The notes: generated by a model not told the origin, from the letters alone. Shown: positions 9,240-14,771, numbered from the stretch's first letter. The stretch: DNA of 32,000 nucleotides from Nitrosomonas europaea (GCF_900167395.1 NZ_FUWK01000007.1:41554-73553), one strand, 5' to 3'. Numbers and translations: made by a program.

Positions 9240-10004
9240 TTGAAATTAAAAGTATTGGGCTGTGGCGGTGGAATAGGGAGTAATTCTCATACCACCGCAA
9301 TGCTGCTGGACGAGGATATTCTGATCGATGCCGGCACCGGAGTCGGCACGCTCGCGTTGGATGATCTGCTGAAAATCGATCATGTATTCGTCACGCATTC
9401 CCACCTGGATCATATTGCATTCATTCCTTTTCTGGTCGACACGACTGGCAGTCTGCGTGATCGTCCGCTGATCGTGCATGCTCTGCCTGCAACATTGGAA
9501 TGTCTGCAGAAGCACATTTTCAACTGGCATGTCTGGCCGGATTTTTCCCGTATCCCTGATGCCGTCCGCCCCTATATGCGTTACCAGCCATTTGCGGTGG
9601 GTGAGACTATAGTGCTGGGTTCGCGCAGAATTACACCGCTGCCGGCTTGCCATGCTGTTCCGGCTGTGGGCTTTCAGCTTGATTCCGGTCAGGCCAGTCT
9701 GGTATTTACCGGTGATACCACTGCCAATGATGGATTATGGGAAGCTATCAACCGGATTACCAACCTACGCTATCTGATCATCGAATCTGCCTTCAGTGAT
9801 GTCAAACATGACATCGCGAGGCGTTCCGGACATTTCTATCCTGCCTTGCTCGCAGATGAACTGAATAAACTGCAGCATGATGCCGAAATATACATTACCC
9901 ATCTGCGTCAGGGGGAAGCAGAGCTGACCATGCAGGAAATTCTTGCCAGAATCAGCCGTTTTGATCTGCGCAGATTGATGAGTAATCAGATATTTGAATT
10001 CTAG
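9240..10004 (+). CDS. class II 3',5'-cyclic-nucleotide phosphodiesterase (metallo-beta-lactamase fold, CpdP-like)
   Basis: Motifs are KVLGCGGGIG and the metal-binding HxHxDH motif (THSHLDH). Length of about 254 aa fits. The start is TTG, 9 nt after GGAGGG. Confidence 0.8.
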   Translation: MKLKVLGCGGGIGSNSHTTAMLLDEDILIDAGTGVGTLALDDLLKIDHVFVTHSHLDHIAFIPFLVDTTGSLRDRPLIVHALPATLECLQKHIFNWHVWPDFSRIPDAVRPYMRYQPFAVGETIVLGSRRITPLPACHAVPAVGFQLDSGQASLVFTGDTTANDGLWEAINRITNLRYLIIESAFSDVKHDIARRSGHFYPALLADELNKLQHDAEIYITHLRQGEAELTMQEILARISRFDLRRLMSNQIFEF

Positions 10005-10016
10005 GATAGAGTGAAT

Positions 10017-12404
10017 ATGAGCATATCTCTGGCTTCTGAAGCCGGTTCCGGCATCATCCCAGGCAATGGGATTCCGTCGGATTCTGCCGGGCGTTTGCAA
10101 TCTGTGATTGACAGGATTCAGGCGGCGGGAAATGTTGATGAAATCATATTCGAAACAAGCCGGGATATCTGCGAGATTTTCAACGCGGATCGCCTGACGG
10201 TCTATACCCTCGGTGACGATAAAACCAGTCTTACGTCACGTGTTAAAACCGGACTGGATTCCTGGCAGAATCTGAAACTGCCCATCAACGAACACAGTAT
10301 TGCCGGCTTTGTGGGGCTGCACAAACAAGCCGTCAATTTCAGAGATGTTTATGATCGGTGTGAGCTCAGGGAACAGAGTGAATATCTGCGTTTCTTGCAG
10401 GAAGTGGACAAGCGGACCGGCTACCGGACCAAACAGATGCTTGTGGTACCGATTCTGAATGCCGGTGATAACGATCTGCTGGGTGTGGTGCAGCTCATTA
10501 ACAACAAGGCCGATGAACCTTTCTCGCAAAGGGTTGTGGATGAATTGAGTGAAATCTGCCAGGCGTTGGCAGTCGCCATCAGGCAGCGCCAGATGCAGCA
10601 GTTACTGGGCAGAACCCGTTATGATCAGTTGATCGTCAATGCCTTGATCAGTGCCAGCGAATTTGAGTTGGCAACCAGGCAGGCGCGTGAAACAGGCCGC
10701 GATCTGGAAGATGTGCTGATCGATGAATTCGGCATCAGTGTGACGCAGGTGGGTGGAGCACTGGCTGTCTTCTTTGGCGTGAGATATGAACGATACCGGC
10801 CGGATCGGATCAAGCCGATGGACCTGCTCAAGAATCTCAAACGTGAATTTGTCGAGAGCAACAGTTGGCTGCCGATCGATGATGGAACTGAAGGGTTGAT
10901 GGTGCTAACCCTGGATCCCGAACGTATCAGAGCATTACGTATCGTCAACCAGATTTTTCCAAAGCGCAAGATCATCTACGCGGTTTGTACCCGGCGTGAA
11001 TTTCAGGCCATGCTGGATCTGTTTTATGGCGGTAATGAAACCGAGAATCTGGGTGGCAGCATCGATGAAATGCTTTCCAATCTGGGTGAGGGCGATGGCG
11101 GGGAAGAAACCAGAGAGACTGATACGGATGAAGCTTCCGCTGCGGCGGATAACGAACTGGTCAAACTGGTCAACCGCATCATCATGGATGCCTATAAAAC
11201 AGGTGCTTCGGATATTCATGTCGAACCCTTGCCGGGTAAGGGGAAAACCAGTATTCGCTTCCGCAAGGATGGTTCACTGATGCCCTATATCGAAATTCCA
11301 GCCAGTTATCGCAATCCGCTGGTGACCCGTATCAAGATCATGTGTGATCTCGATATTTCAGAAAAGCGTAAACCGCAGGATGGCAAGATCAAGTTTCGCA
11401 AGTTTGCGCCTCTTGATATCGAGCTTCGGGTCGCGACGATTCCTTCGGCTGGCGGTGTGGAAGACGTAGTGATGCGTATTCTGGCGGCTGGTGAGCCGAT
11501 TCCACTGGAGAAAATGGGATTTACCTCCTTCAACCTGGAACGGCTGAAATCGATCATCAGTAAGCCTTACGGGCTGTTCTTCGTCTGCGGTCCGACGGGT
11601 TCCGGTAAAACGACGACGCTGCATTCCATTCTCAAATATCTGAACCGGCCGGAAACCAAAATCTGGACGGCGGAAGATCCGGTTGAAATTACGCAGAAAG
11701 GATTGCGTCAGGTGCAGATCAACCCGAAAGCCGGCCTGACATTCGCCACGATCATGAAATCCTTTCTGCGGGCAGACCCCGATATCATCATGGTGGGTGA
11801 AATGCGTGACAAGGAAACAACCAGTATCGGCATCGAGGCTTCGCTTACCGGACATCTGGTTTTCGCAACCCTGCACACCAACAGTGCACCCGAATCCATC
11901 ATCCGTTTGCTGGATATGGGCATGGATCCGTTCAATTTTGCTGATGCGTTGCTCGGGATTCTGGCGCAACGTCTGGCCAAGCGACTGTGCAAATGTAAAA
12001 AACCTCACGTGGCCAGTCGGGAGGAAATTCGCGCGCTGCTGGTAGAGTATTGTGAAGAACTGAAGAATATCGGGAGCTTCAAGGCCGATCCTGATGCAGC
12101 CTGCCGTGAAATCGAATCTCGCTGGGTTCAGCAGTATGGCGATGAAAACGGGCAGATTACCCTGTATGAGCCGGTTGGTTGTGAGCACTGTACACAAACG
12201 GGCTATGCTGGCCGGGTGGGTTTGCATGAATTGCTGACTGCCACCGACGCACTCAAGAAAAATATACAGGAACACGCACGTGTTGCTGAAATGCTGGTAA
12301 CCGCATTGCATGACGGTATGCGTACCCTGAAACAGGACGGGATAGAAAAAGTGTTGCAGGGAATTACCGACATTCATCAGGTGCGGGCGGTGTGTATCAA
12401 ATGA
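10017..12404 (+). CDS. GspE/PilB-family secretion-type ATPase with N-terminal GAF-like and T2SSE_N (MshEN-like) domains
   Basis: The C-terminal core has Walker A GPTGSGKTTT, an Asp box EDPVE, Walker B DIIMVGEMRD, a His box LVFATLHTNSA and tetracysteine CKCK...CEHC. Residues about 35-195 look GAF-like (LLGVVQLINNK). Residues about 205-340 look T2SSE_N-like. GTG 10011 is an alternative start. Confidence 0.85.
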   Translation: MSISLASEAGSGIIPGNGIPSDSAGRLQSVIDRIQAAGNVDEIIFETSRDICEIFNADRLTVYTLGDDKTSLTSRVKTGLDSWQNLKLPINEHSIAGFVGLHKQAVNFRDVYDRCELREQSEYLRFLQEVDKRTGYRTKQMLVVPILNAGDNDLLGVVQLINNKADEPFSQRVVDELSEICQALAVAIRQRQMQQLLGRTRYDQLIVNALISASEFELATRQARETGRDLEDVLIDEFGISVTQVGGALAVFFGVRYERYRPDRIKPMDLLKNLKREFVESNSWLPIDDGTEGLMVLTLDPERIRALRIVNQIFPKRKIIYAVCTRREFQAMLDLFYGGNETENLGGSIDEMLSNLGEGDGGEETRETDTDEASAAADNELVKLVNRIIMDAYKTGASDIHVEPLPGKGKTSIRFRKDGSLMPYIEIPASYRNPLVTRIKIMCDLDISEKRKPQDGKIKFRKFAPLDIELRVATIPSAGGVEDVVMRILAAGEPIPLEKMGFTSFNLERLKSIISKPYGLFFVCGPTGSGKTTTLHSILKYLNRPETKIWTAEDPVEITQKGLRQVQINPKAGLTFATIMKSFLRADPDIIMVGEMRDKETTSIGIEASLTGHLVFATLHTNSAPESIIRLLDMGMDPFNFADALLGILAQRLAKRLCKCKKPHVASREEIRALLVEYCEELKNIGSFKADPDAACREIESRWVQQYGDENGQITLYEPVGCEHCTQTGYAGRVGLHELLTATDALKKNIQEHARVAEMLVTALHDGMRTLKQDGIEKVLQGITDIHQVRAVCIK

Positions 12405-12703
12405 TGTCGTGGCAGTGGTGTTTTGTTAGTGTGAACATGCCCTGCTGGTAATTTCAGTACAACCGGTTCCTGCTCTTGTCCTGCTGGTAGCCATGAATGT
12501 CTGGCTTGCAGCATGGCTGGATAACCGGCGTGGTTTTCCCCTAATTCCTTCTTTTGCTTTGAATAGATTCTGCTAGTCTTGCTGATGCAGAATGCATGCT
12601 TCGGGATGATGTTCTTCCAGGCTCACAATGGTGCTCCCCAGGCAGCCTTCCGGATATTTCCGGGTGATTACGACGATTGCAGTGAAGTTTCAGGAGGATA
12701 ATC

Positions 12704-13522
12704 ATGCAGATTTCAGATGACAAAAAGATATTACAGCTGGTCAAATCTTCGACTGCCAGTAAGAAGAGGGCGAGGGGGACGGTAAAAGGCCGGAATCCGG
12801 TGATCGGTGCAGATGAGTATGGTCAACAGGTCGAGCAGTACGCGCGTCGTATCCGGGAGACCAGTGATGTAAACGAGATTATCAATATTCTGGATACCGT
12901 GCTGGGAGAAACCCGGAATCTGCGTTACAGCAATGAGGTATATAGTGCGCAGGAACAGGTACGGCTTGCAGAAAAGCAGATCGAATCACTCAAACTGGAG
13001 CTGGAGCAACTGCGGGAGCTGATACATTACGATCCCATGACTGGCGCATTCAATCGGCGTGGCCTGGATGCTGTTTATGTGCGAGAGGCGGCGCGTGCTG
13101 ACCGAAACGAGAACACACTGTGTGCGGTTATGCTTGATCTGGATGACTTCAAGCAGATCAATGATACCTATGGTCATCAGTTTGGTGATGATGTTCTGGT
13201 TCATTTTGTGACGGTTGCAAAGAAATCATTACGGCCAAGTGATGTGGTCGCTCGTTATGGCGGCGAAGAATTTGTCGTATTGCTGCCGGATACCACGCTG
13301 GAATCGGCAGTCTGGGTGATGCAGCGTCTGCAGAATAACTTTTCCAGGAAAGTATTATCGGATATGGAGGGTAATTCCGTTCCGGTGACCTTTAGCGGGG
13401 GCGTTGTTTCCCGGCAGTTTCGCGAAGGTCAGAAGTCTTTGCTCAAACGTGCGGATGAGGCACTTTATCAGGCTAAGCAATCCGGTAAGAGCCGCGTAAT
13501 GATTACACCTGTTAATGAGTGA
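12704..13522 (+). CDS. diguanylate cyclase (GGDEF domain) with N-terminal coiled coil
   Basis: It has the active-site motif RYGGEEF, an I-site RPSD exactly 5 residues upstream and a DLDDFKQINDTYGH metal/substrate motif. ATG is preceded by AGGAGG. Confidence 0.9.
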   Translation: MQISDDKKILQLVKSSTASKKRARGTVKGRNPVIGADEYGQQVEQYARRIRETSDVNEIINILDTVLGETRNLRYSNEVYSAQEQVRLAEKQIESLKLELEQLRELIHYDPMTGAFNRRGLDAVYVREAARADRNENTLCAVMLDLDDFKQINDTYGHQFGDDVLVHFVTVAKKSLRPSDVVARYGGEEFVVLLPDTTLESAVWVMQRLQNNFSRKVLSDMEGNSVPVTFSGGVVSRQFREGQKSLLKRADEALYQAKQSGKSRVMITPVNE

Positions 13523-13528
13523 CATTTA

Positions 13529-14771
13529 ATGGAGAATATTTTTCTGGGTAAGCAGCCGATTCTGGATCGTAATCAGAATCTGGTTGCCTATGAGTTCCTG
13601 TTCCGGACAACAGAGGATAATCAGGCAAATGTTTCGGATGGTTTCCGTGCTTCTGCCAATGTAGTGGTGAATGTGTACGGTCACCTCGGGATTCAGCAGG
13701 TGCTGGGTAATCTGCGCGGATTCATCAACGTCAACCATGAGCTGCTTCTGGATGATGCAGTTTTGTTGCTGCCCAGTAAACATGTGGTGCTGGAACTGCT
13801 GGAAACGATTTCTGCCACACCTGAAGTAGTGCAGCGTTGTATCGAGCTGAAACAGATGGGATACCAGCTTGCGCTGGATGATGTGACCCGGATTGATGAC
13901 AGAATCGGACCATTGCTTCCGATCATCAATGTGGTCAAGGTTGATGTGCTGGCGCTGACTGATAATGAAATCATCGACTTGATCCAGAAACTGAGAGCAT
14001 GGCCGGTCATCCCGCTGGCAGAGAAAGTGGATAGCCCAGAACGTGCCAGAATGTGCATGGACTTGGGGTTCGAGATGTTTCAAGGTTATTTTTTTTGCCA
14101 GGCCGGTAATTGTTTCCGGTGGCAAGATCGAATCCGGAAGATTATCTCTTCTGCGATTGCTGTCGCTGGTGATGCGCGATGCGGAGATCGAGGAAATAGA
14201 ACAGCTGCTCAAGCATGAACCGGGTTTGAGTTACAGTCTTTTGCGAATGGTCAATTCGGTAGCGGCAGCATTGCCGCAGAAAATCGGTTCCATACGGCAG
14301 GCTATCATCGCGATGGGTTACCGGCCTTTGAAAAGGTGGGTTCAGTTACTGCTGTATGCTGCGGATCCTTCCGGAGAACTGAACGAGGCCAATGCGCTGA
14401 TGCAAACCGCAGCTATCCGTGGAAGACTGATGGAACTGATTGCAACCATTGATCGCCCGCATGACAAAAATTACCAGGATCGAGCTTTCATGACCGGGAT
14501 AATGTCTTTGCTGGACACGCTGTTTAGTATGGAAATTCAGCAGATCGTGGATAAGCTGGAAATGCCGGATGAAGTGATTCGTGCCCTGGTGCATCGTGAA
14601 GGTCGGCTTGGTTGTAAGCTGCGGCTGATCGAAGCCAGAGAAAAAGGAAATGCAGAACAGGTCGAGAAAGCCATGGCGGAACTCGAATTTCTCGATCGGC
14701 CTGATCTGGTAAAAGCAGATCTCGATGTTCTGGATTGGGCCAACCATATCAATCGGCCGGCCTCATCCTGA
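13529..14771 (+). pseudogene. EAL-like + HDOD domain signalling protein (COG3434/YuxH-type), split by a +1 frameshift in a T8 run
   Basis: ORF 13529..14218 carries the EAL-like part (VVLELLE, ALDDV, VKVD, AEKVDS, FQGYFF). ORF 14043..14771, in the +1 frame, continues with ARPVIVSGGKIE..LLRLLSLV and an HDOD-like region. Deleting one T at 14089-14096 gives the contiguous junction FQGYFFARPVIV. Confidence 0.8.
14089..14096 (+). repeat. T8 homopolymer at the frameshift site of the EAL-HDOD gene
   Basis: Direct count in the sequence: ggttaTTTTTTTTgcc. Seven Ts would keep the frame. Confidence 0.95.

Follow-up and report, generated by a model that had tools for sequence, protein, structure and literature searches.

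What might a motor ATPase of the PilB/GspE superfamily be doing when it carries a GAF sensor domain and its gene follows directly on that of a phosphodiesterase (PDE)? The pair occupies positions 9,240 to 12,404 of a 32,000-nucleotide stretch of Nitrosomonas europaea DNA (GCF_900167395.1, NZ_FUWK01000007.1:41554-73553), hereafter the window, and an original prediction made from this sequence alone read it as a cyclic-nucleotide-gated ATPase whose ligand is reset by the adjacent enzyme. Comparative analysis lends this reading support through conservation of the pair, a cyclase gene upstream of it in many relatives, cyclic-nucleotide-binding proteins in the surrounding cluster, and the nearest relatives of the GAF domain. 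A PilB-like motor that would be gated by cyclic AMP (cAMP) and served by its own PDE is the mechanism proposed here, and it is considered moderately probable.

A conserved pair of genes

The pair and the domains of the ATPase are laid out as follows.

9240..10004, + strand: metallo-beta-lactamase (MBL)-fold phosphodiesterase, class-II-PDE-like, 254 aa, CAD86203.1 (open reading frame (ORF) listing, Pfam, exact-sequence look-up)
10005..10016, + strand: spacer of 12 nt from PDE stop to ATPase ATG, with an AGGA motif over the stop codon and no terminator-like site
10017..12404, + strand: GAF-N1-T2SSE ATPase, 795 aa, CAD86202.1, assembly-type motor of the PilB/GspE superfamily
10086..10616, + strand: GAF sensor domain, residues ~24-200 (Pfam GAF, PDB sequence match, AlphaFold (AF2) model)
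10614..11039, + strand: N1 (T2SSE_N) domain, a four-helix-bundle region at residues ~200-252 and an alpha/beta half at residues 253-341 (Pfam, motif scan)
11040..11171, + strand: acidic low-complexity linker, residues ~342-385, of varying length among orthologues (sequence)
11145..12383, + strand: T2SSE ATPase core, N2 plus C-terminal domain (CTD), with Walker A at 525-532, Asp box, Walker B with E595, His box and zinc-type cysteines

The ORF listing and the DNA confirm the junction originally described, with the PDE stop at 10004 and the ATPase ATG at 10017. The PDE frame opens on TTG, not ATG, with GGAGG 9-14 nt upstream, and its N-terminus, MKLKVLGCGGG, agrees with orthologues of 254-256 aa. 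The AGGA ribosome-binding motif that overlaps the PDE stop lies ahead of the ATPase ATG; an alternative in-frame GTG is present at 10011, and the start at 10017 is favoured by orthologues and by the exact database entry of 795 aa. Both proteins are identical to N. europaea entries, CAD86203.1 being annotated as 'cAMP phosphodiesterases class-II:Metallo-beta-lactamase superfamily' and CAD86202.1 as 'Bacterial type II secretion system protein E:GAF domain'. No terminator-like site was found between the two genes, and the gap that separates them is 10-22 nt in all 14 Nitrosomonas-type loci measured. Motifs and Pfam matches also bear out the domain layout first proposed, a complete ATPase core (Walker A and B, Asp and His boxes, tetracysteine) preceded by a GAF-like module, a T2SSE_N-like module and the acidic linker.

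Related loci were gathered with a profile of the GAF-N1 region, taking one genome per species. At least 569 genomes hold a relative, and the best 80 loci, which are biased towards Betaproteobacteria by the close alignment used for the profile, come from Nitrosomonas, Nitrosomonadaceae, Gallionella, Sideroxydans, Ferrigenium, Pelomicrobium and other Burkholderiales. Neighbours were counted by tblastn with seed proteins, the denominator in each case being the loci with enough flank. The pair is conserved in related genomes, with a PDE gene upstream in the same orientation and no more than 2.3 kb away at 65 of 70 species-level loci, and the pairing is not chance. Nitrosomonas keeps the PDE and the ATPase alone of the genes described below, even where the flanks are unrelated.

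Elsewhere the pair belongs to a larger cluster. A gene for a CHASE2-class III cyclase lies upstream of the PDE (44/64 loci), a GAF-HD-GYP gene directly downstream of the ATPase (53/65), and a type IVa pilin gene next, two genes downstream of the ATPase (31/57); a cNMP_binding-rhodanese gene stands between PDE and ATPase at 23 of 70. On Pfam-annotated contigs the full order is CHASE2-Ser/Thr kinase, PP2C, FHA, CHASE2-cyclase, PDE, (cNMP-rhodanese), GAF-ATPase, GAF-HD-GYP, pilin and TPR proteins. This cluster of ~10 genes, which includes a TPR protein of ~545 aa, is found in Gallionellaceae and other Burkholderiales (loci L003-L006 and most of L017-L086, for example L029:1-21020), and no description of it was found in the literature. 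The GAF domain of the neighbouring HD-GYP protein shares motifs with that of the ATPase (E 1e-10).

A few of the GAF-ATPase loci have no PDE upstream (L016, L032, L052, L053 and L054). The cyclase gene abuts the ATPase gene directly in L032 (Ferrigenium straubiae, a complete genome), L052 and L053, joined in L032 by cNMP-rhodanese; L016 (N. communis) and L054 contain none of the cluster genes. Downstream in one Gallionella locus, a Ser/Thr kinase and a cNMP_binding domain are joined in a single protein. Gallionella, Ferrigenium and a Desulfobacterota contig also have in common a nearby M48 peptidase-TPR gene, which runs on the strand opposite to the GAF-ATPase (the kinase fusion and the M48-TPR genes are at L029:17731-19056, L029:16247-17656, L032:16533-19385 and L089:11420-13258).

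The architecture reaches well beyond this group. In an exhaustive search over 50%-identity representatives, dozens of clusters could be aligned all the way from GAF domain to C-terminus (35-56% identity), and a second GAF domain is present in some. In Desulfobacterota the GAF-ATPase genes stand alone, which suggests that the GAF-ATPase is an old and widespread architecture and its coupling to PDE and cyclase a betaproteobacterial elaboration. Two side observations concern this wider family. A metagenome-assembled genome recovered with Desulfobacterota-type relatives (GCA_022571095.1) encodes tandem GAF-GAF-N1-T2SSE paralogues of 963 and 943 aa among topoisomerase/gyrase genes (L090:6057-11832). 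Stand-alone GAF-GAF-N1 proteins that have no ATPase domain also occur (P0271-P0274, for example a 540-aa 'GAF domain-containing protein' of Undibacterium flavidum), so the sensor module also exists separately.

Sensor, motor, enzyme and likely messenger

Pfam GAF matches residues 40-188 at 40.2 bits (cut-off 22.4), and the conserved features comprise S94-I-A-G, D131-x-x-T134-G-Y-R-T138, G156, Q159, N162-x-K and F169, with SIAG and DxxTGYRT conserved across 39-49 family members. The best PDB sequence match is the cAMP-binding GAF of Anabaena CyaB2 (E 1.2e-22), followed by the GAF of Persephonella PmGH and then the cGMP/cAMP-binding GAFs of PDE5, 6, 2 and 10. An AlphaFold model built on 49 sequences (predicted local distance difference test (pLDDT) score 76) gives a similar picture, the top 28 Foldseek matches being the PmGH GAF and then the GAFs of CyaB2 and PDE2/5/6/10; the cAMP-bound Lcd1 GAF is also among the matches. 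The closest relatives of this domain in sequence and fold are cAMP/cGMP-binding GAFs. By alignment, SIAG and DxxTGYRT would correspond to the ribose-phosphate contacts of PDE2A GAF-B (GIAG; Y..D..TGFRT).

The N1 domain might suggest another ligand. As in V. cholerae MshE, the MshEN domain could make the ATPase a receptor for cyclic di-GMP (c-di-GMP), with flanking GGDEF, EAL-HDOD or HD-GYP proteins setting the ligand and the GAF domain secondary. Pfam MshEN/T2SSE_N (PF05157) does match residues 253-341 above cut-off (47.2 bits against 23.1), and genes for c-di-GMP enzymes follow the ATPase gene at most loci. The match, however, covers only the C-terminal alpha/beta half and not the nucleotide-binding helices. 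The c-di-GMP site of MshEN consists of two tandem 24-residue motifs, of relaxed form RLGxx(L/V/I)(L/V/I)xxG(L/V/I)(L/V/I)xxxxLxxxLxxQ (PMC5013675). This motif is absent from the window ATPase, from all Nitrosomonas-like orthologues (0/120) and from the distant GAF-type representatives (0/36), whereas it occurs in 35 of 114 other PilB/GspE representatives scanned as a positive control, often as a tandem pair. Where MshE has RLG at motif I, the family consensus is (K/R)(F/Y)D. Because the motif is missing family-wide and the control set is positive, a c-di-GMP-binding N1 is unsupported; the suggestion that the T2SSE_N module might serve as a c-di-GMP site fails, gating through MshEN is rejected, and a c-di-GMP receptor of this kind is considered very improbable.

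The motor itself is well preserved. Pfam T2SSE matches residues 377-789 at 383 bits (cut-off 24.9), with Walker A GPTGSGKT at 525, Walker B and the catalytic glutamate (E595) in IIMVGEMRD at 590, and the His box LTGHL at 610. Among 39 family sequences the Asp-box residues E553, P555 and E557, together with E595, H613 and H620, are invariant or nearly so, and the tetracysteine pattern CxC...CxxC (C658, C660, C722, C725) is invariant. Judged by these intact motifs, the ATPase is a catalytically competent assembly-type motor of the PilB/GspE superfamily.

It may be nothing more exotic than a PilB orthologue that serves as the organism's usual extension ATPase for type IV pili, with an incidental GAF domain and a housekeeping cAMP PDE for a neighbour. 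The solved structures nearest to the core are Thermus PilF and Myxococcus PilB, followed by Vibrio EpsE; the best NCBIfam model is the PilB equivalog, TIGR02538; and the type IVa pilin of 31 of the 57 relatives lies two genes away. Yet TIGR02538 scores 474 bits against a cut-off of 675.65, and the GspE equivalog, TIGR02533, 439.2 against 630.25, from which it follows that the ATPase is not a recognised orthologue of PilB or of GspE. A pilB-pilC-pilD arrangement was never seen around the GAF-ATPase in the 86 loci examined, and the PDE is tightly coupled to it by the short gap described above, not scattered. An ordinary PilB is on balance unlikely. A neighbour-joining tree of 145 representative cores interleaves GAF-bearing and other long-N-terminus proteins, with fragments confounding the picture; several of the neighbours in that tree that have no GAF carry an N-terminal region of ~200 aa with no Pfam match, followed by a motif-positive MshEN.

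The enzyme encoded upstream is an MBL-fold protein whose Lactamase_B_2 match (Pfam) spans its full length. PDEase_II (PF02112) scores 44 bits against a cut-off of 23.7, passing the gathering score, and 27 of 27 orthologues scanned do the same (best E 6.9e-17). The matching region consists of HSHLDH and the LPATLECLQKHIFNWHVWPDF stretch after it, which also aligns to yeast PDE1, and a PDB profile search places the PDE1 alignment on the same ~57 residues. The metal motifs are intact (H53-x-H55-x-D57-H58, that is HSHLDH at 53-58, with H138, D159 and H221), and these seven residues are invariant in 27 orthologues, as is H198. A single-sequence AlphaFold model of the enzyme has a pLDDT of 33.7. The Apyc1 family (PF23023) appears in precomputed Pfam hits of orthologues; our own hmmscan (E<=0.01) gave none for the window protein and 27 orthologues, and the Apyc1 structure is absent from the PDB profile search with the PDE family, which returned generic MBL nucleases and PDE1 only. 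A context of anti-phage defence or anti-defence was also considered and set aside, PADLOC giving no match for the PDE and a trivial P-loop match only for the ATPase.

The cyclases of the relatives indicate which nucleotide is involved. Class III adenylate cyclases are distinguished by Lys and Thr(Asp), guanylate cyclases by Glu and Cys(Gly). All of the parsed cluster cyclases (40/40) carry DKY[MI]GD and A-Y-T; among aligned references, Lys and Thr are found in CyaB and CyaC, both adenylate cyclases, and Glu and Gly (DEFMGD, Y-G) in the guanylate cyclase Cya2. The Lys/Thr signature points to adenylate cyclases in the cluster and makes cAMP the likely messenger.

Under the proposed mechanism, the PDE and ATPase genes would form one operon, a small cAMP signalling unit. 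A cyclic nucleotide, most likely cAMP, would bind the GAF domain and switch the assembly, activity or docking of the motor allosterically, and the co-transcribed MBL enzyme would hydrolyse the same nucleotide and keep the local signal transient. The pair would be the retained core of the larger betaproteobacterial cluster, in which the CHASE2-adenylate cyclase may make the signal, the CHASE2-Ser/Thr kinase, PP2C and FHA proteins may add a phosphorylation input, and the paralogous GAF of the GAF-HD-GYP protein may link c-di-GMP breakdown to the same signal. For N. europaea we assume that the cyclase is encoded elsewhere in the genome, the c-di-GMP slot being filled by GGDEF and EAL-HDOD genes. 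What the GAF domain binds, what the PDE cleaves, which way the regulation runs and which machine the motor serves are all inferred.

Several observations weigh against this mechanism. The NKFDE motif of the GAF domain is only approximate (NKADEPFSQRVVDE), and many GAF domains bind other ligands. The PDEase_II match is limited to residues 46-103, corresponding to profile positions 83-142 of 340 around HSHLDH; similarity to characterised class II enzymes does not run the full length, covering 58 of 340 profile positions. NF041851, the NCBIfam model for cyclic nucleotide-degrading phosphodiesterases, gives 28.3 bits against a cut-off of 400, and against the PDB the PDE family resembles a generic ribonuclease Z (RNase Z)/beta-CASP/PDE1 MBL enzyme. 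The window contains no cyclase, pilin or platform gene, and the sub-cut-off PilB and GspE scores mean that the partner machine is not given by the ATPase sequence. The GAF-ATPases of Desulfobacterota have no PDE, cyclase or pilus genes nearby and sit among housekeeping genes, and the literature yielded no biochemical data for any family member.

Some of these points would also fit a different account, in which the GAF domain responds not to a cyclic mononucleotide but to some other input, such as a metabolite, the redox state or a protein partner, or only dimerises, and the MBL enzyme is RNase Z-like or another hydrolase, adjacent for some other reason. GAF ligands are diverse, the PDB sequence matches of the MBL family are mostly nucleases, RNase Z models hold the top NCBIfam E-values for the PDE, and distant GAF-ATPases occur away from cyclic-nucleotide genes. 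These RNase Z models nonetheless fall far under their cut-offs (TIGR02651 scores 57.6 bits against 292.95, on the N-terminal half only), whereas PDEase_II is passed by every orthologue scanned. In most relatives, moreover, the enzyme lies between an adenylate cyclase and cNMP_binding proteins, and the nearest relatives of the GAF domain are cyclic-mononucleotide binders whose putative phosphate- and ribose-contacting motifs it keeps. A different ligand is accordingly rated as quite improbable, and the cAMP-gated motor remains the preferred reading.

The partner machine and the surroundings of the pair

The motor is predicted to be hexameric and PilB-like, and its most likely target would be a type IV pilus-type filament machine encoded elsewhere. 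This step, the weakest in the argument, follows from a core that resembles PilF and PilB and from the presence of a pilin gene in the cluster; the pilin two genes downstream in Gallionellaceae-type clusters points to a pilus. No PilC/GspF or secretin gene is present among the Pfam-annotated genes of L001-L006 and L087-L090.

In the window, Pfam scans of ORFs of at least 150 aa found no pilus or type II secretion genes (platform protein, prepilin peptidase, pilins or secretin), none of the reading frames has a prepilin-type N-terminus, and tblastn with a pilin seed gave no match, all of which agrees with the original report of none in 32 kb. The description of the ATPase as an orphan holds in part: it fits the window and the Desulfobacterota relatives, and it does not fit the Gallionellaceae-type clusters with their nearby pilin gene. 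The Pfam content of the window is otherwise made up of biotin genes, hydrolases, TerC, Usp, GGDEF, EAL/HDOD, FumC, SMC, ZipA and Wzc/Wza/GT4/sugar genes.

The last of these, at 22-32 kb, had suggested an exopolysaccharide (EPS) apparatus as the partner. As a conserved feature this link was rejected, the flanks of the pair being wholly different in other Nitrosomonas genomes, with, for example, pgaABCD upstream and Band7/NfeD downstream. The pgaABCD (poly-N-acetylglucosamine) operon lies upstream of the pair in an uncultured Nitrosomonas-like genome, with two small ORFs between (L001:2065-7986, the same locus as L011). This polysaccharide locus differs from the one in the window, and its adjacency to the pair may or may not be meaningful.

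Two genes of c-di-GMP metabolism follow the ATPase gene in the window.

12704..13522, + strand: GGDEF diguanylate cyclase, 272 aa, GGEEF motif with an RxxD site upstream (Pfam)
13529..14771, + strand: EAL-HDOD gene, split by a frameshift (Pfam; T8 run at ~14089-14097)

Conservation of the GGDEF gene at this site is limited to the N. europaea/eutropha lineage (+2.6-2.75 kb in L007-L010). In the window the gene is separated from the ATPase gene by a non-coding gap of 300 nt (12405-12703) that contains a weak terminator-like hairpin at 12516-12529, and it probably has its own promoter; an Rfam scan of the window, this gap included, gave no match. The EAL ORF (13529-14218) and the HDOD ORF (14043-14771) overlap in different frames, the break falling at the T8 run right after the EAL 'QGYFF', and the two are one intact ORF of 414-419 aa in L007, L009 and L010. 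The split may stem from an error in sequencing the homopolymer, from decay to a pseudogene or from slippage in this strain. EAL-HDOD takes the slot held by GAF-HD-GYP in other Betaproteobacteria.

A ComF-like ORF (41-943, - strand) with a phosphoribosyltransferase domain and a double zinc ribbon is found 8 kb away from the pair and is oriented divergently to the bioBFHCD operon. In other bacteria, ComF proteins take part in DNA uptake along with type IV pili.

Relation to known systems and biological meaning

The ATPases regulated by c-di-GMP through MshEN (V. cholerae MshE, PA14_29490 and C. perfringens PilB2; PMC5013675, PMC11656802) belong to the same superfamily and share the N1-N2-CTD layout. 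As in these proteins, the N-terminal module of the motor itself is predicted to sense a nucleotide second messenger. Unlike them, the N. europaea ATPase is missing the c-di-GMP motif, has an extra GAF domain before N1, has a predicted cyclic mononucleotide ligand and is accompanied by its own PDE gene. Thermus thermophilus PilF and Myxococcus xanthus PilB (5oiu, 6f8l, 3jc8) match the N2 and CTD core at E ~1e-101 with all catalytic motifs in common; PilF begins with three GSPII/MshEN modules, in contrast to the GAF domain and single degenerate N1 here, and the insert between the CxC and CxxC cysteines is longer here than in PilF or PilB.

The sensor has its best matches among the cyclic-mononucleotide-binding GAFs (Anabaena CyaB2, 1ykd; PDE2/5/6/10; Leptospira Lcd1, 5w10; M. 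xanthus GacB), with which it shares SIAG and DxxTGYRT. In Lcd1 and GacB, cAMP binding to the N-terminal GAF activates the output domain. The output in those proteins is a cyclase, PDE or GGDEF domain, unlike the secretion-type ATPase here. The GAF of PmGH (4mcw), a GAF-HD-GYP c-di-GMP phosphodiesterase, ranks first by fold and second by sequence. Relatives encode a protein of this architecture, with a paralogous GAF, as a conserved neighbour downstream; the N. europaea window has none.

The PDE shares its MBL fold and HxHLDH signature with class II PDEs (yeast PDE1, 4ojv; PF02112) and with the phage anti-Pycsar protein Apyc1 (PMC9117128). Its 'LPxTLxxLQKHIFN..WPD' stretch aligns to PDE1; it is shorter than PDE1 (254 against 369 aa), and ~60 residues align specifically. 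Unlike Apyc1, it is found in a chromosomal signalling context and not in phage. Type VI secretion is controlled by threonine phosphorylation through the kinase PpkA, the PP2C phosphatase PppA and Fha1. By gene neighbourhood, the cluster of the relatives likewise groups a Ser/Thr kinase, PP2C and FHA protein with a secretion-type motor; the machine is a different one, and the kinase, PP2C and FHA genes are absent from the N. europaea window.

Direct control of motors by a second messenger is known for c-di-GMP only, acting through MshEN or through PilZ/FimX partners, and the known cAMP control of type IV pili is transcriptional, by Vfr/CRP-type regulators (PMC11656802, PMC5013675). A 2024 review of PilB regulation treats cAMP as a transcriptional input only and describes no GAF domain and no direct cAMP control. 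No paper on PilB/GspE ATPases fused to GAF domains, on the PDE-ATPase cluster or on guessed NE locus tags came up in literature searches. The architecture has been present in annotations since the N. europaea genome was annotated; it is uncharacterised and well supported by comparative genomics, and its two proteins are small and soluble.

The relatives raise the possibility, which we hold only tentatively, of an undescribed and widespread betaproteobacterial system. An extracellular cue at CHASE2 domains would be converted into cAMP and Ser/Thr phosphorylation, and cAMP would both bind the PilB-like motor and lower c-di-GMP through GAF-HD-GYP, so that one messenger might switch pilus assembly and c-di-GMP post-translationally. 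Should this hold, no earlier motor ATPase in the type IV filament superfamily would itself have been a receptor for cAMP.

If the proposed mechanism is correct, it would add a new post-translational control point, at which the motor reads cAMP with cyclase and PDE next door, and would reveal the connections between cAMP, Ser/Thr phosphorylation and c-di-GMP. The carriers include ammonia oxidisers (Nitrosomonas) and iron oxidisers (Gallionella, Sideroxydans, Ferrigenium), organisms in which attachment and biofilm formation are relevant to wastewater treatment and iron cycling.

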